A stretch of 32,000 bases of DNA, from positions 1 to 32,000 of the forward strand of contig NC_009664.2 of NCBI RefSeq assembly GCF_000017305.1, written 5' to 3'. A model generated the notes under the pieces. That model did no database searches and had not been told where the DNA came from. It saw only the letters and a program-made list of their open reading frames with translations. Positions 17,940-28,802 of the stretch are shown in pieces; the stretch's first letter is position 1; each line of letters opens with the position of its first letter. The DNA comes from Kineococcus radiotolerans SRS30216 = ATCC BAA-149. GTDB lineage: Bacteria; Actinomycetota; Actinomycetes; Actinomycetales; Kineococcaceae. Both the position numbers and the translations under genes were made by a program.

Positions 17940-18507
17940 CCATCGGCCGCCTTCGAGGTGCTCACGTAGAACGACCTGGCCACGGCCATCCTGGGAAACC
18001 TGAGCGCGGCGACCCCTGCTGAGCGCAACCTCGCCCGCCGCGCCTTCCTGCCCGAGGTGGCCCACCGAACCGACGCGGAGGTCGCCCACCGAACCGACGC
18101 GGAGGTCGCCCACCGAACCGGCGCGGAGGTCACCGACATGATCGAGTTCCGTCACCCCATCATCGCTGGATCCAGCACCGCGACGGTCCGCTACCCCGCT
18201 ACCCCACTGACCCGCCGATTTACTGACCCCCCGATCCAGGACCTCGTCACCGAACTGCGGGCAGACAGCACAGACTTCGCCCGTCTCCGGCAGCGTCACC
18301 ACGCGCAGGCGCAGCCCGTGATCACCAAGACGTCCCGGCATCCGGGGGTGGCCTCGATCACCGTGGACTGCGACACGCCGCTGCTCCCCGACCATGACAG
18401 ACCGTGACCAGCAGCTGGTCCTCTACACCGCCGTCCCCGGCTCCCGCGACACCGATTCCCTCGAACTACCGCGCACGGTCATCGCGAAGTCGCTGAACGC
18501 CAGCTGA
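17940..18507 (+). pseudogene. MmyB-like regulator pseudogene (ligand-binding domain only)
   Basis: PSAAFEVLT*NDLATAILGNLSAATPAERNLARRAFL...DLVTELRADSTDFARLRQRHH...ITVDCDTPLLPDHDR, then after a +1 shift DQQLVLYTAVPGS...*. There is no HTH, an in-frame TAG at 17967, a repeat insert, and a frameshift near 18405. Confidence 0.6.
18054..18137. repeat. 24-bp tandem repeat x3.5
   Basis: GAGGTCGCCCACCGAACCGACGCG units encoding (EVAHRTDA)n within the pseudogene. Confidence 0.9.
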
Positions 18508-18633
18508 TCCACGCCCTTCTGCACAAGCACAGGTCCGCCCCGGCTCCAGTTGACTCTGACCTCGCCACACCGCAGTCCCTGCACCCCACCCTGCTGAGTT
18601 TCACACAATGAGTAAGCAGCACCCCACAGCAAC

Positions 18634-19341
18634 GGTGAGCGCTTCGCCACCGGAGTCCCCGGTGAGCTGCAGCTGTCCACCGGGCGGCTGCGTTACGTCA
18701 ACGCCGGGCACCCCGCCCCGCTGATGATGCGCGAGGGCAAGGTCGTCAAGGAGCTCGAAGGCGGCCGACGCATCATGCTCGGACTCGGTGACGGCCGGAG
18801 CGCCATCGCCGAGGAGTGGCTGCAGCCCGGTGACCGCATCGTCTTCTACACCGACGGCATCACCGAGGCACGCGACCGCGACGGGGACTTCTTCGGCCTA
18901 GACCGCCTCGTGGACCACCTGCACAGAGCCGCGACAGCGCAGCTGCCCGCACCGGAGACCCTGCGCCGCATCGCCCACGACGTCCTGGACCGTCAAGGCG
19001 GCGTCCTGCAGGACGACGCCACATTGCTCATCGCCGAGTGGGCCACCACACGCGAACGCGCCCTCGTGTCCGCAGACGACATCGCCGCGCACGAACTGTC
19101 CCCCACCCACCGCGACCGCGAGGACACCCCCCCGCCGCTGACCACGGCCCAGGTGCGCCTAGGCCGGACGTCGCGACCACCGCTGCGGACACGAAGGCGC
19201 ACACCAGCCAGGATGGACACCAGTCAGGCAGACACAGGGGCCGATCCCGCAGGCCCGTCTTCTCCTACCCCGTCGAGGCGACGCGGATGGCGCGGATGGC
19301 GCGGATGGCGCTTGGCAGCATCGAGGGCGCCGTGGTTCTAG
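18634..19341 (+). pseudogene. truncated 3' copy of the PP2C/SpoIIE phosphatase gene
   Basis: Positions 18634-19068 align without gaps to 28299-28733 of the intact gene (GERFATG...YTDGITEARD...LLIAEWA). The frame opens just after a TAA around 18610, so the N-terminal two thirds are missing. The tail (19069-19341) is unrelated Arg/Pro-rich sequence. Confidence 0.7.
19282..19308. repeat. 9-bp tandem repeat x3 (CGCGGATGG)
   Basis: Read directly from the sequence, 30 nt beyond the stop of the minus-strand NTF2-like gene. Confidence 0.9.
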
Positions 19342-20105: not shown

Positions 20106-22034
20106 TCAGGCTGCCCACTGGGCGGTGAGGGCTTCGGCGGGTTGAGGGTGCCCGCAGTGGAAGCCCTGCAGGTAGTGGCAGCCGGCGTCGGTGACCTGAC
20201 TGGCTTGCGCAGCGGTTTCCACGCCTTCGGCGATGACCTGCAGGTCCAGGCTGGTGGCCACCGTGACCACCGCGTCCACCAGGGCCCGCCGGCGCGGGTC
20301 GTGCCCGAGACCGGCGATGAAGCTGCGGTCGATCTTGGCCATCTGCACCGGCAGCTCCACCAGACGCGACAAGGAGGAGTAACCGGTGCCGAAGTCGTCG
20401 ATGGACAGCGGGTGCCCGCGATGTTCCTGCTCCTGCAGGACAGGCAGGACCTCGGGGTTGCTGAAGCTGTCCTCGACCACTTCCAGACCCAACTGCTGCG
20501 CATGCAGGTCATGAGTGCGCAGCGCGGTGGCCAAGGTGGTGGTCAGGGCCGGGTCGACGAGTTCGCGGGCGCTGAGATTGACGTAGGCGCTGTACGGCGC
20601 CCCCCGCCGCAGCTCGCGGCGCCACCGGCTCATCTGGGCGCAGGTCTCATCGATGACCCACCTCCCGATCTCCACGATCAACCCGGTATCCACCGCCAGG
20701 TCGACGAACCGCGCGGCGGGCAGCAACCCGCGCTGAGGGTGCTGCCAGCGCAGCAGGGCCTCCACCGCGTGCACGCCACCACCAGGCTCGGTGATGGGCT
20801 GGTAGTGCACCTGCAGCTGATCGTGGGTCAGGGCCTGGGCGAGCTGACGTTCGAGGTGACGCCCCGGACGCTGGGCACTTCGAGCAGCGACACCAGCGCT
20901 GCCACCAGCGCCGCCGCCAGCGCTGCCCCTGCTCACCTCGGTCAGACCGATCACGCCGCCGCGGCCGTGCTGCTCATCGCGTATGCCCTGCTTCACCCGG
21001 CTGTCCCGCTTCGCGCGGTACATCGCCTCATCGGCCGCGGCCAGCAGGTCATCGGCGCTGGGGTGCTCCTCGCTGAGCGCCACCCCGATAGTGGCCCCGA
21101 CCATCAGGTCCACGCCGGCGACGTGGACAGGACGGGCCAGGGCTCGGCGCAGACGAGACGTGACGGCGTGCACGTGCCGGTCAACCTCGCCCCCATCGCC
21201 CGGGCCGCCCGAGCTGGCTCGGGGAAGGTCCTCGCACAGCAGGACGAACTCGTCCCCGGCGAGCCGGGCCAAGGTGTCCTCCTGACGCAGGGAGGCGTTC
21301 ATGCGGGTGGCCACCGTCGCCAACACGGTGTCCCCGGCGGCGTGGCCGAGGGTGTCGTTGACGGCCTTGAAGCGGTCGAGGTCGATGAAGAAGACCGCGA
21401 CGGTGCGCTGGTGGCGCCGCGCGGCGTGCAGGGCGTGCTCGAGCCGGTCGAAGAGCAGAGTCCGGTTGGGTAGCCCGGTCAGGCCGTCGTGGGTGCCGGC
21501 ATGAGCCAGTTCCTGCTGAGCCTGCAGCGCCTGGGCGCGATCAGCGGCCATCACCAGGTAGGACACCGCCACGTGCGCCAGCAGGTGCGCCCACTGCAGT
21601 TCCTGCTGGCCCCAGGTGCCGGCCTCGCGGCGGTAGAGGTCCAGCACCCCCCACACCCGCCCGCGGCTGATCAGCGGTACCGCGATCACCGAGCGGAACC
21701 CCTCCTCCAGGACCCGCTGCACGAACTCCGGCCACGCCGTCTGGACCGGGTCGTGCAGGTCGTCGACGACGACGTCGACGTGGAAGAGCAGCGCGTCGTG
21801 GCAGGGCCCTTCTTGCATCAGCTGCTGCAGCTTCTCCGCCGAGCCCACGTCGGCGCGGTCGGCGTGGACGAAACGCAGCAGTTCCCCGTCGTTGATCATG
21901 ACGCCGGCGCCGTCGACGTCCAGGTGCTCGGTGGTGATGTCCACCAGGTGCTTGAGGAGGTCCTCGGGGTCGGCCTGCCCGCTGGCCGCGGTCGCCAGCT
22001 CCGCCAGCGCGCCGGTCATCGCCTCGGTGTTCAC
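20106..22034 (-). CDS. GAF-GGDEF-EAL c-di-GMP turnover protein
   Basis: N-terminal GAF (GPCHDA..., AVPLISRGRVWGVLDLY). GGDEF domain (GLTGLPNR, DLDRFKAVNDTLGHAAGD, RLAGDEFVLL). EAL domain (HAVEALLRW, NLSAREL, DDFGTGYSSL, KIDRSF, AEGVET, QGF). Start at GTG 22034 or ATG 22019. Confidence 0.9.
   Translation of the reverse strand: MNTEAMTGALAELATAASGQADPEDLLKHLVDITTEHLDVDGAGVMINDGELLRFVHADRADVGSAEKLQQLMQEGPCHDALLFHVDVVVDDLHDPVQTAWPEFVQRVLEEGFRSVIAVPLISRGRVWGVLDLYRREAGTWGQQELQWAHLLAHVAVSYLVMAADRAQALQAQQELAHAGTHDGLTGLPNRTLLFDRLEHALHAARRHQRTVAVFFIDLDRFKAVNDTLGHAAGDTVLATVATRMNASLRQEDTLARLAGDEFVLLCEDLPRASSGGPGDGGEVDRHVHAVTSRLRRALARPVHVAGVDLMVGATIGVALSEEHPSADDLLAAADEAMYRAKRDSRVKQGIRDEQHGRGGVIGLTEVSRGSAGGGAGGSAGVAARSAQRPGRHLERQLAQALTHDQLQVHYQPITEPGGGVHAVEALLRWQHPQRGLLPAARFVDLAVDTGLIVEIGRWVIDETCAQMSRWRRELRRGAPYSAYVNLSARELVDPALTTTLATALRTHDLHAQQLGLEVVEDSFSNPEVLPVLQEQEHRGHPLSIDDFGTGYSSLSRLVELPVQMAKIDRSFIAGLGHDPRRRALVDAVVTVATSLDLQVIAEGVETAAQASQVTDAGCHYLQGFHCGHPQPAEALTAQWAA
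20891..20926 (-). repeat. in-frame 12-bp tandem repeat x3 in the GGDEF-EAL linker
   Basis: CACCAGCGCTGC, CACCAGCGCCGC, CGCCAGCGCTGC, encoding SAGGGAGGSAGV on the minus strand. Confidence 0.85.
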
Positions 22035-22530: not shown

Positions 22531-22911
22531 TCAGGGTGGCGGTGCCAGCAGCGCCATCTCGCACCACACCTGCACAACATGGGGCTCTCGCCTCCACCCC
22601 CACTGCTGGCTCAACGCGGAAAGCAGCAGCTCGGACTCCGCACCGACCTCGAAAGGGCCGTCCCCGGCGAGATCGACGACGACGGTCAGCCCATCCAGGT
22701 CTTCTCGGACCGACACCGCTTTCGCCCAATGCTGCGGAGCGCCCACGGCGAAAAGCTCCCCAGCGGCTTGCACCAACTCCTCGGTGCGGTCCTCGCCGAC
22801 CCCGGCCTGCTCAGCGTAGACGGACAGGAAGCGGCGTGCCTGCGCCAACTCCTGCGCTCCGCCTGCCAGGTCAAGGCGGATCCGATCCCCGGCATACGTG
22901 TGGGAATTCAT
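22531..22911 (-). CDS. RsbW/SpoIIAB-like (HATPase_c_2-type) anti-sigma/kinase homolog with degenerate ATP-binding motifs
   Basis: Trimmed to ATG 22911 (MNSHTYAGDRIRLDL...), with GGAGGAGG 8 nt upstream. The ATG overlaps the STAS stop (ATGA). The layout (L.L......L...R.F....AEQAG...D....L..A..EL, ...VVVDLAGDGPF, ...LLSALSQQWGW......VWCEM) resembles short RsbW-type proteins, but ELFAVGAPQH sits where the N-box Asn is expected. Confidence 0.55.
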   Translation of the reverse strand: MNSHTYAGDRIRLDLAGGAQELAQARRFLSVYAEQAGVGEDRTEELVQAAGELFAVGAPQHWAKAVSVREDLDGLTVVVDLAGDGPFEVGAESELLLSALSQQWGWRREPHVVQVWCEMALLAPPP

Positions 22912-23348
22912 GCGCCCCCCTCCTCCGCCCACGCCCGCGAGACGCGGAAGTCGAGAACCGCGGGGAGGGCGAAAAGCTCCACCAGAGCCATCAGGTGCGG
23001 TTGAAGGCCGCACACCTGCAAGGAGTTGCCAACGCCTTCGGCGCGTTGCGACAAGGCCACCAGCAGGCCCAAGACCGCGCAGTCCAGGAACGTCACTGCC
23101 GACAGATCCAGGACGACCCGTTCAGCGATGTCGACGACCGGCTCAACCTGTTCGCGAATCCACGCTAAATCGCCCATGTCCAGCTCACCGCACAACGCCA
23201 CCGTGCACGGCTGGGCGGGGCGAGGACTCTGATCAGGGGCAGGAGGACGCGGCTGAGCGGCCGGAGAACGGTGAAGCGCAGAAGCATGATCAGTGGAACA
23301 TCGGGGCTGTTGGCTACGGGAAGCGGTCAGGAGCTGGGTCACGGCCAC
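22908..23348 (-). CDS. STAS-domain protein (anti-sigma-factor antagonist family)
   Basis: CTVALCGELDMGDLAWIREQVEPVVDIAERVVLDLSAVTFLDCAVLGLLVAL...LQVCGLQPHLMALVELFALPAVL matches the SpoIIAA/RsbV pattern. The only in-frame starts upstream of the fold are GTG 23348 and 23342, giving a roughly 50-aa Pro/Gln/Ser-rich extension. No clear SD. Confidence 0.75.
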   Translation of the reverse strand: MAVTQLLTASRSQQPRCSTDHASALHRSPAAQPRPPAPDQSPRPAQPCTVALCGELDMGDLAWIREQVEPVVDIAERVVLDLSAVTFLDCAVLGLLVALSQRAEGVGNSLQVCGLQPHLMALVELFALPAVLDFRVSRAWAEEGGA

Positions 23349-23662
23349 CTCGCGGAAGGAGCAAAGGCCGGGCCTGACTTTGGACCCACCCGAAGGCTAA
23401 GCCCCCTCCTCGGGGGCCGCAAGACGCCTGCCAGGACCCTGTCGCCCTCCAGCCGGGGCAATCTTCACCTTCGGCAATGCCCACCCGCCCCTTGTGCCCC
23501 CCTTGCGGGATGGGCCAAGGTCCATTCCGCACCCGGCGCTTGAGCATTACGTCTGCGGGCGCAGCTGATGAGTCCCGCCTCCGCCGTTGCAGCCCCAGGC
23601 CCAGGTGCTCTTGCTGGCCCGGGATGTTGTGCGATGCGGGCGCCTGGGCTCGCAGGGCTAGG

Positions 23663-24022
23663 TCAGGGGCGTTTGCGGTCCAGGTGCTGCAGCAGGTCGT
23701 CAGCGGCCTGCTCGATCTCGGAGTGGTCGTTCTGCGCGGCGCGCTGCTTAGCGTGGATGAGCGCGGCCCGGTTCACCGTCGAGAAGTCCCCGTAGGGGAA
23801 GTGGTAACGCTTCTTGGTGCGCTCGGAGGCGTCGGGGTCGATGGCCAGGTGCCAGCGGGCGTACTGCTCCCACCCCTCGTCGTCGAGCTCGTCGTTGCCG
23901 TCGGCGGGCGAGGGCGCGGCCTGCGACCAGGCGGTGTCGTCGTCGTAGGTCCCTGCGTCGATCAGCTCGCGGGCCTGGTCGACGGCTTCCTGATTCACGC
24001 GGTAGCTCGGCATGCCGCTCAT
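23663..24022 (-). CDS. small acidic hypothetical protein
   Basis: 119-aa ORF with coding-like composition (MSGMPSYRVNQEAVDQARELIDAGTYDDD...KKRYHFPYGDFSTVNRAALIHAKQRAAQNDHSEI...). I recognise no family. Confidence 0.6.
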   Translation of the reverse strand: MSGMPSYRVNQEAVDQARELIDAGTYDDDTAWSQAAPSPADGNDELDDEGWEQYARWHLAIDPDASERTKKRYHFPYGDFSTVNRAALIHAKQRAAQNDHSEIEQAADDLLQHLDRKRP

Positions 24023-24136: not shown

Positions 24137-26035
24137 TCAGCGCCCGGCGCGGCCTCCAGTGCTCCCCGCCGGGTCCAGGACGATCCGCTGAACGGGCGCG
24201 GCGAGGACCTGCTGCCAGCGCGGGAGCACCGGATCGCGGTGGAAGCGCAACCGCCCCGCCGGTCGCGACCCGCGCCGGCCACCTGCGTGCCAGGCATCCA
24301 GCGCGGCGGCGCTGGCGCGCAGAGCCGCGACGGCGCGGTGGGGGTCGAGGAGGTCGAGGTCCCCCCAGTCGTCCCCCCGGTCGCCTCTGCGGTCGCCTTC
24401 CCAGCCGCTCCCGCGCTCATCCTGCTCGCCCTGCTCACTCTCGAAGCCGCTCCTGCCCAAGTGCTCGCGCATCAGCTGCAGGCGCAGATCTCGAGCGAAG
24501 CGGCGGGCACCGTCGCCCAGCCCGGCCGGGTCAGCAGGCTCGCGCTGATCGTGGGCCTCGTCCAAGACGGCAACCGACAGTTCGGAGTCATGGCTCCAGG
24601 ACCGACGGTTGAGGTTGTCGCTGCGCACGCACGCCCACACGTCGTCGACGATGGTGACCTTGGAGTGGACGTAGACCGCCTCGCCCTGCTCGTTCTCCAC
24701 GTCGAAGACGTGCACACGGTCCCCGCCCGCGGCGCGCAGGACCTCCAACGCCCGCACCTGCCCCAGCAGCAGCGCAGGCGCCGCCAGGCCCCCGCGCTTG
24801 GGGTGACGCGGCACCAGGACGACCAACTGCAACCCGGATGTAGCGCGCAGGGCATCGGCGAAGACGCCGGCCACCTGCCGCGACCACAGGAACTGCTCCT
24901 CCACGTAGACCAGACGCCGGGCCCGGCGCAGCACCTTGACGTGAGCGGCGACGATGCTGGCCTCCCCCTGGGGGGCGAAGGGGTAGCGCGGCCAACGGCG
25001 CGGGTAGGTCCGCAGCAACTGCACCACGCACGAGCCGGGTGTGAGCGCATCGGGTGCGGGGCCCAGCGCGGGACCCCCCGGCGTGGGCTCCCCCGGCGCG
25101 GGCTCCCCCGGCGCGGGCTCCCCCGAGGTGGGCTCCTCTTCAGCTGGGTGAGCAGCCGCGGCCGGCATCGGCTGCGGTGGGGGAAGCGGTACCGGCCGCC
25201 GCACGAGACGGCGCAGCAGGTCCGAGCCGACCTGCCACGGCAGCAGCGACAGCGGCGCACGGTCCTCCCACCGTTCGCGGAAGACGGTCTCGACGTGGTC
25301 CACCGCGGGCCCGCGGACCGCGGTGTGGATGTCGTGCCACGAGGGATGGCGCCCGTACTTGCTCCCGAAGGACATCCGCTGCCGGTCCCCGTGGTGAGCG
25401 GTCCCGTCACGGCGACTGTGGGCGAGGTCGAGGCTGCCGACGAAGGCGACATCGTCCTGGGGACGGTGCAGGTGCCGGATGACGAGGAACTTCTGGTGGT
25501 GACTGCCCAGGGTCCGCACCCGCTGGTCCAGCAGGACCTCCGCGCCCCCCTTCACCTTCTGAGCCAGGTGGCGGTTTCGCTCAGGCACCAGACGCTGCCA
25601 ATCCCACGGTGAGCGCCACACCAGGCCCTTGACCACCGCACCGCGGCGGGCGGCGGCGGTGAGAGCCTCAGCGATCGTGGGCCCGTCGTCGGTGAGCAGC
25701 TCATCGGGATCGCCCTGCCAGTCGGCGAAGAGCACCAGATCACCCTCACCGCTCCCCGCCAGCGCTGCGGCCAGCGCCGAGAAGTAGGCCACCCCGTCGA
25801 CGAGGGGCTGCACCCGGTTCCCCCGGCTCCACGCGGGCAGGCGGGTGGCGCCGTTGCCGCGTTCGGCACCGCTCAGCAGCCAGACGGTCGCAGACCGGTC
25901 ACCGGCACCATCCCCGGCGCCATCCCTGGTGGCCGTCGCGCCCTTGGTAGCAGCGGTGGTGGCGCTAGCAGCGGCGGTGGCGCTAGCAGCGGTGGTGGCG
26001 GCGGTACTGAAGGTGGCGTCCTGGTGGTGGCTCAT
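24137..26035 (-). CDS. phospholipase D-like protein with two HKD motifs
   Basis: Track ORF 24137..26632 trimmed to ATG 26035 (MSHHQDATFS...), which overlaps the stop of the upstream kinase gene (ATGA). First motif GSHHQKFLVIRH...VAFVGSLDL. Second motif YVHSKVTIVDDVWACVRSDNLNRRS. The N-terminal GNRVQPLVDGVAYFSAL...ADWQGDPDELL resembles long PLD enzymes. Confidence 0.85.
   Translation of the reverse strand: MSHHQDATFSTAATTAASATAAASATTAATKGATATRDGAGDGAGDRSATVWLLSGAERGNGATRLPAWSRGNRVQPLVDGVAYFSALAAALAGSGEGDLVLFADWQGDPDELLTDDGPTIAEALTAAARRGAVVKGLVWRSPWDWQRLVPERNRHLAQKVKGGAEVLLDQRVRTLGSHHQKFLVIRHLHRPQDDVAFVGSLDLAHSRRDGTAHHGDRQRMSFGSKYGRHPSWHDIHTAVRGPAVDHVETVFRERWEDRAPLSLLPWQVGSDLLRRLVRRPVPLPPPQPMPAAAAHPAEEEPTSGEPAPGEPAPGEPTPGGPALGPAPDALTPGSCVVQLLRTYPRRWPRYPFAPQGEASIVAAHVKVLRRARRLVYVEEQFLWSRQVAGVFADALRATSGLQLVVLVPRHPKRGGLAAPALLLGQVRALEVLRAAGGDRVHVFDVENEQGEAVYVHSKVTIVDDVWACVRSDNLNRRSWSHDSELSVAVLDEAHDQREPADPAGLGDGARRFARDLRLQLMREHLGRSGFESEQGEQDERGSGWEGDRRGDRGDDWGDLDLLDPHRAVAALRASAAALDAWHAGGRRGSRPAGRLRFHRDPVLPRWQQVLAAPVQRIVLDPAGSTGGRAGR
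25066..25140 (-). repeat. in-frame 15-bp tandem repeat x5 in the PLD gene
   Basis: GCGCGGGCTCCCCCG-type units encoding SGEPA/PGEPA/PGEPT/PGGPA. Confidence 0.9.
25950..26003 (-). repeat. in-frame 18-bp tandem repeat x3 at the PLD N-terminus
   Basis: GCAGCGGTGGTGGCGCTA-type units encoding AATTAAS/ATAAAS/ATTAAT. Confidence 0.9.
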
Positions 26036-27003
26036 CGGATGACGCTCACCGCGGCGGGCGCGCAGGAGACGACGACCTCCACACCGGTCTCGACCTGGTG
26101 GACCTCCCCGTCCATCTGCACCGGCATCGGCGTGGCGGTGGTGAAGGCGTACGGCTCCTCGCGGGAGATGACCTCGTGCGTGCCGCGCACCAGACGCAGG
26201 ACGCTGGCCAGCAGCTTCAGCTTGCTGCGGTGGCGAATCAGCAGCGTCTCGTAGGTGCCGTCGGTGGGTGAGGATTCCTGCGACAAGGTGGCGTACTTGG
26301 CCATCCGGTCGATGTTGGCGAACACCAGGCTGTCCAGCTGAATGCGGTGGCCGTCGTGGGTAATGGTGAACGGGCGGTAGCGCCAGACACTGCGCAGCGC
26401 CAGCAGGCTCTCCTTCACCGCGTCCAGGTCGTGCTGGTTGAACTCCACCGCAACCACGGGGGTGATGCCCAACCCGACGTAGGAGTGCGCGTAGCGCGGC
26501 TCCTGACCGTCGATGAGCACCTCCAGCAGGTCCATCTGCGACACCGTCCCCGCCACGATCGCCTCCACCAGGGGCCGCTCCTGCACCGCCGTGGCGTGGT
26601 CGTTGGCGTTGCCCGAGGCCAGCACCGCGCACACCCCGGCACCGGGGACCCGGCGCCGGGCGCGCATGACACCGTTGACGACCTCGTGGTAGCCGCCGTC
26701 ACCGCTGGCGGAGACCACCAACGTGGCCGGGTGCTCGCTGACGGCCCGCTCAGCGAGTTCCACCGCATGCCCGGCGTGCTGGGTCTGGGCCAGCTGCACC
26801 ACCGTGGCGGGAAGACGCTGGGCGAGCTGAGCGCGCAACTGCTCGCCGTTGCCTGGACCGTCACCGGTGCTGTGGGGGTTGTAGATGACCACCACGCGAT
26901 CGAAGTGCCCGGTTACCGCCTGGATCGCTGCTCGAGTCGCTGCCTGGATCACTGCTGGAACCTCCGATGGGGTGTCGGCGGACACTCCACCATTCGCCGA
27001 CAT
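26032..27003 (-). CDS. diacylglycerol-kinase-family (DAGK_cat, YegS/BmrU-like) lipid kinase
   Basis: RVVVIYNPHSTGDG, VVSASGDGGYHEVVNG (GGDGT-type motif) and LASGNANDHA (GTGNDFA-type motif). Start uncertain: ATG 27003 is preferred and GTG 27099 is possible. Confidence 0.8.
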   Translation of the reverse strand: MSANGGVSADTPSEVPAVIQAATRAAIQAVTGHFDRVVVIYNPHSTGDGPGNGEQLRAQLAQRLPATVVQLAQTQHAGHAVELAERAVSEHPATLVVSASGDGGYHEVVNGVMRARRRVPGAGVCAVLASGNANDHATAVQERPLVEAIVAGTVSQMDLLEVLIDGQEPRYAHSYVGLGITPVVAVEFNQHDLDAVKESLLALRSVWRYRPFTITHDGHRIQLDSLVFANIDRMAKYATLSQESSPTDGTYETLLIRHRSKLKLLASVLRLVRGTHEVISREEPYAFTTATPMPVQMDGEVHQVETGVEVVVSCAPAAVSVIR

Positions 27004-27530
27004 TGCCACGCAGCGCGCACGGCAGCCACCTGGGGCGGGCTGCGCACTCTGACCTTCCAGCTCTCGGACTTCAGGCTCCAGCGCAGCACACGGACCCACT
27101 GGAGCGAGGCGACGGGACTGCTCGGCAGTGATGGATGTGGCTGCACTGTTCAGACGAGCCCTCTTGCGCTCAGGCCGCTACCCGCGCGCAGCCGTCGCAG
27201 CGCCGCACACGGCGCCGGTCGCAACGCCGTGCACGACGTCGATGACGTCGGCCCCGCTCAGCCACGCCTCGGTCGCACCCCACGGAGCCCTCCGGCGATC
27301 ACCTTCCCTGCGCGCAGCCTGCCTGCCTCTCCCCGTCAGCACGTCAGCGCCGGTGGATCCGGTTGCGTTCAGGGGCGGGGCCGCCGGTAGCGGCATGACG
27401 GCGACGGCGCGAAGGGCCCTGCAACAGCTCGGGCCTGGTTGTCGGGAAGGAGGCCGTCGGGGATGGGGCGGGTGGCTACGCGCGATGTCACCGAGCCGGT
27501 GACACGGAGGAGGCGTTAGCGTCTCGGAGC

Positions 27531-28802
27531 ATGAGCGCTGGTGCGTCCGAGCGGACACTGGTCATGGTGCGCACCCTGATGGACCGTGCCCACCTGGCCA
27601 CCACCGGGCAGATCCCCGACGCCACCCTGGAGGCCGCCCGCACGCTGGGCTGGACGGCCCAGCTCTACCTCACCGACCACGAGCAGCGCCTGCTGCTGCC
27701 GCTGCCCACCACCGGCCTGGCACCGCGGCGCCCGCAACTCATCGCCACCACCGTGGCCGGGCGCTGCTTCCGCGGCATGCGACCGCTGACTGTCCCCAAC
27801 GACAGCACCCGCGTCTGGCTGCCCGTCTTCGACGGCGCCGACCGCCTGGGTGTCCTCGAACTCACCGTCCCCGAGGGCGGGGACCTCGACGACGAGGTGT
27901 TCGCCGAGCGCTGCCGGCTGCTGGCCCACCTGAGCGGGCACCTGATCGCGGCGAAGAGCCCCTATGGCGACGCGCTGGACCGCATCCGGCGCCGGCGACC
28001 GCGCACGGTGGCCTCCGAACTGCTGCACCAGGTCCTGCCGCCGCTGACTTTCGCGTGTGAGGGACTGGTCGTCTCCTGTCTGCTGCAACCGGCGTACGAC
28101 GTGGCCGCGGACGCCTTCGACTACAGCGTCGTCGACGAGACCGCGCACCTGGCCGTGCTGGACGCCACCGGTCACGACGTGCACGGCACGATCCTGGCGG
28201 CGCTGGCGCTCTCGGCCTACCGCAACAGCCGCCGCAACGGCCACGGCCTCGGCGAGGCGGTACGTGCCGTGGACGCGGTGATCGCCGAGCACGGCGGCGG
28301 TGAGCGCTTCGCCACCGGTGTCCTGGGTGAGCTCGACCTCGGTACGGGTCGGCTGCGCTACCTCAACGCCGGGCACCCCGCTCCCCTGCTGCTGCGCGAG
28401 GGCAAGGTCGTCAAGGAGCTCGAGGGCGGACGGCGCATCCTCCTCGGTCTGGGTGAGGGGCAGGTCGACCTCGCCGAGGAGTGGCTGCAGCCTGGGGACC
28501 GGATCCTCTGCTACACCGACGGCATCACCGAGGCGCGCGACCTCGACGGCGCCTTTCTCGGCGTCGAGGGTCTCGTGGAGCATCTGCACAAGGCCGCCGC
28601 CGCGCAGCTCACCGCCCCCGAGACCCTGCGACGCATCAGCCACGACGTCCTGGAGCGCCAAGGCGGCGTCCTGCAGGACGACGCGACCTTGCTCATCGCC
28701 GAGTGGGCCAGCACGCGGGAGCGTGACTTCGTGACGTCCTCCGCCGAGGACGTCGACGGACGAGACTTCACCCCCTCCCGCGCCGGCGGTCTCCGGCGCT
28801 GA
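27531..28802 (+). CDS. PP2C-family (SpoIIE/RsbU-like) serine phosphatase with an N-terminal GAF-like sensor region
   Basis: C-terminal half: VSCLLQPAYDVAADAFDY...AVLDATGHDVHGTILAAL...ERFATGVLGELDL..GRLRYLNAGHPAPLLL...YTDGITEARD...DDATLLIAEW. The N-terminal region of about 170 aa (VWLPVFDGADRLGVLEL) is GAF-like. Confidence 0.85.
   Translation: MSAGASERTLVMVRTLMDRAHLATTGQIPDATLEAARTLGWTAQLYLTDHEQRLLLPLPTTGLAPRRPQLIATTVAGRCFRGMRPLTVPNDSTRVWLPVFDGADRLGVLELTVPEGGDLDDEVFAERCRLLAHLSGHLIAAKSPYGDALDRIRRRRPRTVASELLHQVLPPLTFACEGLVVSCLLQPAYDVAADAFDYSVVDETAHLAVLDATGHDVHGTILAALALSAYRNSRRNGHGLGEAVRAVDAVIAEHGGGERFATGVLGELDLGTGRLRYLNAGHPAPLLLREGKVVKELEGGRRILLGLGEGQVDLAEEWLQPGDRILCYTDGITEARDLDGAFLGVEGLVEHLHKAAAAQLTAPETLRRISHDVLERQGGVLQDDATLLIAEWASTRERDFVTSSAEDVDGRDFTPSRAGGLRR

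Follow-up and report, generated by a model that had tools for sequence, protein, structure and literature searches.

What becomes of a partner switch when the antagonist has lost the residue that should be phosphorylated and the kinase has lost the motifs that should hold ATP? The question is raised by two overlapping genes, Krad_2198 and Krad_2199, in the 32-kb window that we analysed, a stretch of the Kineococcus radiotolerans SRS30216 chromosome with a G+C content of 70.8 %. The open reading frame (ORF) of Krad_2198 is identical to ABS03681.1, WP_275263040.1 and WP_041291793.1, and that of Krad_2199 to WP_041291792.1 (protein look-up). The databases label the first protein as "STAS domain-containing protein", or as "anti-sigma-factor antagonist" in the case of ABS03681.1, and the second as "ATP-binding protein". 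Our literature search found no paper naming any of the genes Krad_2197 to Krad_2200. We show that the canonical kinase/phosphatase cycle cannot run between the two proteins, because the phosphorylatable Ser, the N-box Asn and the G2 box are absent and the ATP lid is shortened. We give an even chance to the explanation that they form a translationally coupled, phosphorylation-independent partner switch of the RsfA/UsfX type, probably controlled by the thiol of Cys90 in the STAS protein.

Krad_2198 passes the Pfam cut-offs of both STAS_2 (PF13466; E = 7.8e-14, 52.1 bits vs 29.2) and STAS (PF01740; E = 6.4e-11, 42.4 bits vs 22.6). It is also clearly related to the NCBIfam family TIGR00377 ant_ant_sig (E = 6.6e-12), staying below the curated cut-off with 45.3 bits vs 53.45, and phmmer searches of PDB sequences matched it to SpoIIAA, MlaB, RsbV and RsfB. 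The STAS core extends approximately over residues 46-135 and is preceded by about 47 poorly constrained residues. Residues 81-94 read DLSAVTFLDCAVLG. In the phmmer alignment with the SpoIIAA chains 1th8_B, 1tid_B and 1auz_A, the motif LDLSAVTFLDCAVLGLL of Krad_2198 falls on LNLGQLTFMDSSGLGVIL, and because no gap is needed in this motif, Cys90 sits on Ser58 of SpoIIAA, a residue that is mutated to Ala in the 1TID/1TIL chain. A MAFFT alignment places Cys90 also on Cys73 of Mycobacterium tuberculosis RsfA. In the RsfA sequence used there, the positions of Cys73 and Cys109 agree with the literature. The phospho-site thus holds neither Ser nor Thr, and Cys90 is followed by Ala, just as an original prediction for this locus had read it.

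The same prediction had pointed to four cysteines in the STAS core (CTVALCG, LDCAV and QVCG), and these are indeed found at positions 48, 53, 90 and 113; a fifth, Cys17, belongs to the N-terminal extension. Cysteine is enriched in the core, with 4 per 100 residues vs 0.56 % in 20 genes of the window (binomial P = 0.0026). Cys53 aligned to Ser19 of Geobacillus SpoIIAA (chain 1th8_B). Regarding the N-terminal extension, its G+C content at third codon positions (GC3) is 0.55 vs 0.80 in the core, and its ratio of nonsynonymous to synonymous substitution rates (dN/dS) is ~0.6-1.5, i.e. almost neutral. Versions of 97, 144 and 146 amino acids (aa) are deposited in RefSeq/GenBank and the true start codon is uncertain. 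The sequence offers only two in-frame starts 5′ of strand beta2, the GTG codons listed in Table 1, so a complete STAS fold needs the long form.

The homology of the partner was harder to establish by sequence comparison. Krad_2199 stays below the gathering score of HATPase_c_2 (PF13581) with 19.5 bits vs 27.4 (E = 0.001), and the match covers residues 21-55 only, which is the region of helix 1 and the N-box. We obtained a match to the RsbA family of NCBIfam (E = 5e-5), no significant match among PDB sequences, and no significant similarity between the family profile and UsfX by hhalign (E = 0.48). The UsfX sequence used is identical to PDB chain 8ih8_C. The AlphaFold2 model of Krad_2199, built from 11 family members, reached a predicted local distance difference test score (pLDDT) of 85.5 and a predicted template modelling score (pTM) of 0.80, and shows one strand, two helices, two strands, one helix and two strands in succession. 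When this model was compared with the PDB by Foldseek, the 21 top matches were all anti-sigma factors of the RsbW/UsfX/SpoIIAB class. They were led by M. tuberculosis UsfX (8ih8_C and 8jzt_B, template modelling (TM) score 0.72), followed by Bacillus subtilis RsbW, SpoIIAB and the RsbW domain of Rv1364c, with a Foldseek probability of 1.00 and TM scores of 0.53-0.72 across 8ih8_C, 8jzt, 6m36/6m37, 1til, 1l0o and 3ke6. The Bergerat-type alpha/beta sandwich of SpoIIAB, RsbW and UsfX is present in the model, and the RsbW-like character originally ascribed to the partner is in this way borne out by its fold. The relationship to the RsbW class rests on this fold together with the weak HATPase_c_2 and RsbA matches.

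What the fold has lost is seen when Krad_2199 is aligned with its canonical relatives P0014 and P0018. In the N-box, Glu52 is kept, the Asn that coordinates Mg-ATP is replaced by Val56, and one residue is deleted (ELFAVG-APQH vs ELLANAIRHG and ELVANAMQHG). Approximately nine residues of the ATP lid are missing, the G2 box GRGL has become ESEL and only Gly83 is kept; in the model, an 8-residue loop is all that lies between strand 74-82 and helix 91-100. The lack of an N-box Asn and of a Gly-rich lid, suspected from the start, is therefore confirmed. The N-box Asn is absent from every member of the family, including the 10 others aligned besides Krad_2199, and the deletion in the lid and the loss of G2 are likewise common to all members. 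QARRF in helix 1 and WGW...VWC at the C-terminus are conserved. As the Mg-ATP Asn, the G2 box and most of the lid are gone, sequence and model together show Krad_2199 as a predicted pseudokinase with the RsbW/UsfX fold, which would bind its partners only and would not phosphorylate them. The label "ATP-binding protein" is probably wrong. Binding of a sigma factor and of the STAS antagonist is predicted for Krad_2199, supported indirectly by the translational coupling and by the QARRF motif. The idea of a phosphorylation-independent pair, already put forward in the original prediction, is upheld to the extent that the residue correspondences, whose verification it had called for, hold and rule out a canonical cycle in which RsbW phosphorylates RsbV.

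Neither gene is disrupted, the two are coupled, and close strains conserve them. An ATGA overlap and a strong Shine-Dalgarno sequence in front of the partner gene, both of them noted before, are present in the window and are kept, together with intact ORFs, in three strains (the window and the metagenome contigs L017 and L018, ~97 % identical). L017 carries a 3-nt insertion within the gene pair, and because this indel is in-frame, the reading frame of the pair is maintained. A Logan assembly of the same strain (L015, at ~5510) has 5 G instead of 6 G in the homopolymer run 22913-22918, which precedes the ATG of Krad_2199. It is the sole difference and shifts the frame of the STAS C-terminus into the Krad_2199 gene; a homopolymer assembly error is the most likely cause. 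The GC3 of the pair is 0.79-0.80 vs 0.87-0.93 in the adjoining genes.

How could such a pair be switched? By analogy with SpoIIAA-SpoIIAB, RsbV-RsbW and RsfB-UsfX, Krad_2198 would bind Krad_2199 via the face on which the GELD loop and the beginning of helix 2 lie, and on this face Cys90 would take the place of the phospho-serine. The most likely control would be a modification of the Cys90 thiol, which could be oxidised, S-thiolated or paired in a disulfide with Cys53 or a different thiol. Such a modification could add bulk or charge where the phosphate would otherwise be and release Krad_2199 to its target, as reported for Cys73 of RsfA. Candidates for this target, which is encoded outside the window, are alternative sigma factors and canonical RsbW proteins. 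Thiol or redox gating of Krad_2198 is plausible in view of the Cys that RsfA has at the same position.

Several results weigh against this explanation. Krad_2198 has no Cys where RsfA has Cys109 (ELFALPAV vs IHACGYGDV); its other core cysteines are 48, 53 and 113, and Cys113 is probably a buried core residue, because SpoIIAA has a Cys at the matching position of beta4. No sigma factor gene was found in the 32-kb window. None of the 12 Kineococcus loci with a partner homologue has a STAS gene beside it (phmmer with the STAS core of the window, E ≤ 1, against every ORF of 40 aa or more in L001-L014, a set that contains these 12 genome loci), and the partner family therefore needs no coupled STAS protein. 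The dN/dS of the STAS gene among the close strains is 0.6-0.8, a value that, like that of Krad_2199 given below, comes from three near-identical strains with substitutions too few to decide. Finally, when the natural head-to-tail fusion of STAS core and partner was modelled by AlphaFold2 from an unpaired alignment, the STAS half reached a pLDDT of 31-60 and the pTM was 0.53.

The two proteins might also bind each other in a switch that is not based on a thiol at all. Cys90 would then be one tolerated non-phosphorylatable residue among several, as Gly, Ala and Cys all occur at this site, and control would come from the expression level, from a ligand or from phosphorylation of another residue by a Hanks-type kinase, as for Thr2 of Rv0516c. 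We regard this as rather unlikely. The Ser is kept in two of the six M. tuberculosis anti-anti-sigma domains, and Rv0516c has Gly and is phosphorylated on Thr2 by PknD (PMC1847690). The six nearest plasmid STAS homologues have Ser in four cases, Cys in one (Kitasatospora, TFIDCRGL) and Ala in one. The missing counterpart of Cys109 points in the same direction, and the long Ser/Thr/Pro-rich N-terminal extension could bear phosphorylation sites. What speaks for the thiol instead is the significant enrichment of Cys in the STAS core, the recurrence of the D-C motif in many high-GC STAS proteins (recovered with a scan pattern that contained the motif) and the fact that the sole characterised protein with Cys at the phospho-site uses it for regulation.

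The family of Krad_2199 is rare: when 1.84 billion representative proteins were searched exhaustively with HMMER, only 16 matched at E ≤ 0.001. The nearest of these share the degenerate motifs of Krad_2199, and the canonical N-box proteins P0014 and P0018 appear only at ~1e-4. In the genome scan, homologues with 47-57 % identity were found in Kineococcus species only, some genomes having two copies, and the plasmid search gave no homologue of Krad_2199. The lid-less family is so far known only from Kineococcus and a few metagenomes, and its coupling to a STAS gene was seen only in K. radiotolerans and close strains. Scanning metagenomes with the STAS core yielded homologues of 33-47 % identity and one 25-residue match of 68 %, and no RsbW-like gene followed the STAS homologues in that scan. 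Several high-GC soil metagenome contigs carry AVTFLDCA; since the scan pattern contained the motif, this gives no frequency. Two soil metagenome STAS ORFs (L023:272-727 and L026:2902-3357) combine TFLDCA with a Cys at the RsfA Cys109 position (ALCRLGDV vs HACGYGDV), so that they match the cysteine pair of RsfA while the STAS protein of the window does not.

The neighbours of the Kineococcus homologues vary (L002-L014, e.g. L014:4076-7871 and L004:4483-5791). A DUF2254 gene lies downstream in L002, L013 and L014, the homologue in L014 is accompanied by a phage integrase and a SpoIIE phosphatase, and judged by eye there is a serine-recombinase-like ORF in L004 and LexA- and DinG-like ORFs in L006 and one further locus. 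Some copies are located on short contigs with 2-3x the usual coverage (L007 and L009), a possible sign that the element is mobile or repeated.

An orphan family present in more than one copy, with no sigma gene nearby, would also suit a decoy. Krad_2199 would then not be an anti-sigma factor but would form a heterodimer with a genuine RsbW and act like RsbW3 as a second antagonist, itself modulated by Krad_2198. There is a precedent in RsbW3, a kinase-dead RsbW homologue that acts via an RsbW1-RsbW3 heterodimer (PMC10950880, PMC7693655). We nevertheless find a decoy distinctly unlikely, as the best structural match of Krad_2199 is UsfX, a true anti-sigma factor, and a great distance separates Krad_2199 from canonical RsbW (E ~1e-4), while RsbW3 is close to RsbW1.

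The other features of the locus are listed together with those of the pair in Table 1. On the strand of the pair, the order from upstream to downstream is the diacylglycerol-kinase-like gene, the PLD-like gene, Krad_2197, the pair, a gap of ~500 nt and the GAF-GGDEF-EAL gene Krad_2200. The PLD ORF called mechanically has 831 aa vs 632 aa in the Logan gene call and probably starts too far 5′. The 314-nt gap between Krad_2197 and the STAS gene (23349-23662) is conserved like coding sequence among the three strains and contains a G+C-rich hairpin without a T-tract at 23401-23417 (GCCCCC-TCCTC-GGGGGC). Searching the whole window against Rfam and scanning for promoters and terminators gave no match.

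Table 1. Features of the gene pair and its surroundings (positions are those of the window)
Feature	Position	Strand	Basis and remarks
STAS-domain protein Krad_2198	22908..23348	minus	146 aa from GTG 23348; 144 aa from alternative GTG 23342
Krad_2199, Asn-less and lid-less RsbW/UsfX-like predicted pseudokinase	22531..22911	minus	126 aa
Cys90 codon TGC	23079..23081	minus	equivalent to SpoIIAA Ser58 and RsfA Cys73; phmmer and MAFFT alignments
Cys48 and Cys53 (CTVALC), strand beta2, directly 5′ of the conserved GELD loop	23190..23207	minus	sequence read and phmmer alignment
Cys113 codon, beta4 (QVCGL)	23010..23012	minus	SpoIIAA also has Cys there (VVCAV)
N-terminal extension of the STAS ORF, 47 residues	23208-23348	minus	Pro/Ser/Ala/Gln-rich
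Degenerate N-box ELFAVGAPQH of Krad_2199, residues 52-61	22729..22758	minus	alignment with canonical relatives P0014 and P0018
G1-lid-G2 remnant GDGPFEVGAE of Krad_2199, residues 83-92	22636..22665	minus	same alignment
ATGA start/stop overlap of Krad_2198/Krad_2199	22908-22911	minus	stop 22908-22910, start 22909-22911; sequence read
Shine-Dalgarno sequence GGAGGAGG of Krad_2199	22919-22926	minus	7 nt 5′ of ATG, within the 3′ end of the STAS gene
Krad_2197	23663-24022	minus	acidic, 119 aa, no Pfam match; directly upstream of the STAS gene in 3 strains
PLD-like (HKD motif) and diacylglycerol-kinase-like (DAGK_cat/YegS_C) genes, tandem	24137-27099	minus	
GAF-GGDEF-EAL protein Krad_2200	20106..22034	minus	Pfam EAL 2.8e-66, GGDEF 6.8e-42, GAF 9e-15; ~500 nt downstream of the pair
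Intact SpoIIE/PP2C-domain protein	27399..28802	plus	Pfam SpoIIE 2.5e-43; ~4 kb upstream of the pair
SpoIIE/PP2C fragment, profile positions 55-191 only	18616..19341	plus	Pfam SpoIIE 4.5e-32; ~3 kb downstream of the pair

Krad_2200 is a possible output or co-regulated gene of the pair. Control of a diguanylate cyclase by a STAS protein has an example in HsbA/HsbD of Pseudomonas. The same Hsb partner switch is the subject of PMC6482189. In a similar manner, the STAS protein or the pseudokinase might bind Krad_2200, so that the output would be cyclic di-GMP (c-di-GMP) signalling. The position of Krad_2200 on the same strand shortly downstream, a layout that recurs in L015, assembled independently from the same strain, is in line with this. 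The gap of 500 nt suggests a separate transcript, though, and in none of the 12 Kineococcus loci is the partner homologue paired with a GGDEF gene, which makes a c-di-GMP output very unlikely in our view.

The original prediction had assumed that a neighbouring PP2C phosphatase was linked to the pair and left without its usual substrate. This link is not supported beyond loose proximity, as 3-4 kb and other genes separate the pair from the two SpoIIE-domain ORFs, which lie on the opposite strand and one of which is a fragment; neither is part of the operon of the pair. The fragment adjoins another one, a piece of an MmyB-like ligand-binding domain (profile positions 82-145 only) at 17970-18407 (+), and both resemble gene remnants. 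That the pair itself is what a decaying RsbV-RsbW operon of the canonical kind has left behind, devoid of any present function, is scarcely credible, for while the SpoIIE and MmyB fragments nearby, the lowered GC3, the dN/dS of the STAS gene and the loss of all catalytic motifs would fit decay, the ORFs, the ATGA overlap and the Shine-Dalgarno sequence are intact in three strains, the indel is in-frame, the partner gene has a dN/dS of 0.18-0.69, and the partner family retains invariant motifs and a high-confidence fold at 47-57 % identity across Kineococcus species.

The coupled switch with a thiol at Cys90 remains the explanation that we favour. One result of the analysis is a correction of the annotation of Krad_2199 (WP_041291792.1), which is called an ATP-binding protein and has no ATP-binding motif at all. 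A phosphorylation-independent switch of the RsfA/UsfX type would be extended beyond mycobacteria, in the form of a tightly coupled two-gene unit. According to a review, only mycobacteria that cause tuberculosis have RsfA-like proteins (PMC8256260); the D-C motif found here, on a Kitasatospora plasmid and on several soil metagenome contigs suggests that the type is broader. If Cys90 senses oxidation, which is a prediction based on homology, the pair would provide a compact switch that responds to redox state, in a bacterium whose resistance to radiation and oxidative stress is an object of study. We think it quite improbable that the lid-less Kineococcus family, of about 126 aa and without a Pfam model, constitutes a distinct class of non-catalytic regulators, with a Cys-rich STAS protein enlisted in the radiation-resistant K. 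radiotolerans to sense thiol state directly. Were it so, stress from oxidation or radiation would act on transcription, or on the c-di-GMP enzyme Krad_2200, with neither kinase nor phosphatase involved.

Among the systems that can be compared with the pair, SpoIIAA-SpoIIAB and RsbV-RsbW of Bacillus share with it the gene order from antagonist to anti-sigma factor and the translational coupling, and their antagonists likewise have a STAS fold and their anti-sigma factors a GHKL-like one. They differ in having the phosphorylatable Ser, the N-box Asn, the G2 box and a lid of full length. RsfA (Rv1365c) and UsfX/RsbW1 (Rv3287c) make up the redox branch of the SigF partner switch in M. tuberculosis and Mycobacterium smegmatis. 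In M. tuberculosis, rsfA and usfX are not known to be adjacent, whereas Krad_2198 and Krad_2199 overlap by ATGA; usfX adjoins sigF there, and this window is without a sigma gene. In RsfA, the Cys at the consensus phospho-site is the counterpart of Cys90, and Greenstein et al. described its oxidation as the means of regulation (PMC1847690). A disulfide between Cys73 and Cys109 inactivates that protein (PMC7693655, PMC10950880). Besides the missing Cys109, Krad_2198 differs from RsfA in its 47-aa Pro-rich N-terminal extension.

On the side of the partner, UsfX resembles Krad_2199 in having a GHKL fold without kinase activity or motifs, it is the best structural match, and both come from Actinomycetota; the lack of significant sequence similarity sets them apart. 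In Mycobacterium smegmatis, RsbW1, the UsfX orthologue, and RsbW3 have no kinase activity, and the N, G1 and G2 motifs are kept by RsbW2 only (PMC7693655). RsbW3 is alike in being a kinase-dead RsbW-like actinobacterial protein whose role need not be sigma binding, but it is near RsbW1, while the family of Krad_2199 is a separate and very rare one, which the genome scan recovered from Kineococcus alone. Another pair of a GHKL-like and a STAS protein outside classical sigma control is CapK-CapS (PMC13373217, EMBO J 2026). CapK is a DNA-damage-activated GHKL kinase with HTH-STAS-GHKL (HTH, helix-turn-helix) architecture and an essential Asn, and CapS is a STAS repressor with a winged HTH and an invariant Ser (PMC13373217). 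We rejected an identity with CapK/CapS, as the Krad pair has no HTH (Pfam), no Ser and no Asn, and its 126 and 146 aa leave no room for an HTH. The novelty implied by the original prediction was too high, given that kinase-dead RsbW homologues with a Cys-type STAS antagonist have already been described in mycobacteria. The type of module is thus known from mycobacterial RsfA/UsfX, and what distinguishes the Kineococcus pair is its tight coupling, its different set of cysteines and its very rare, lid-less partner.

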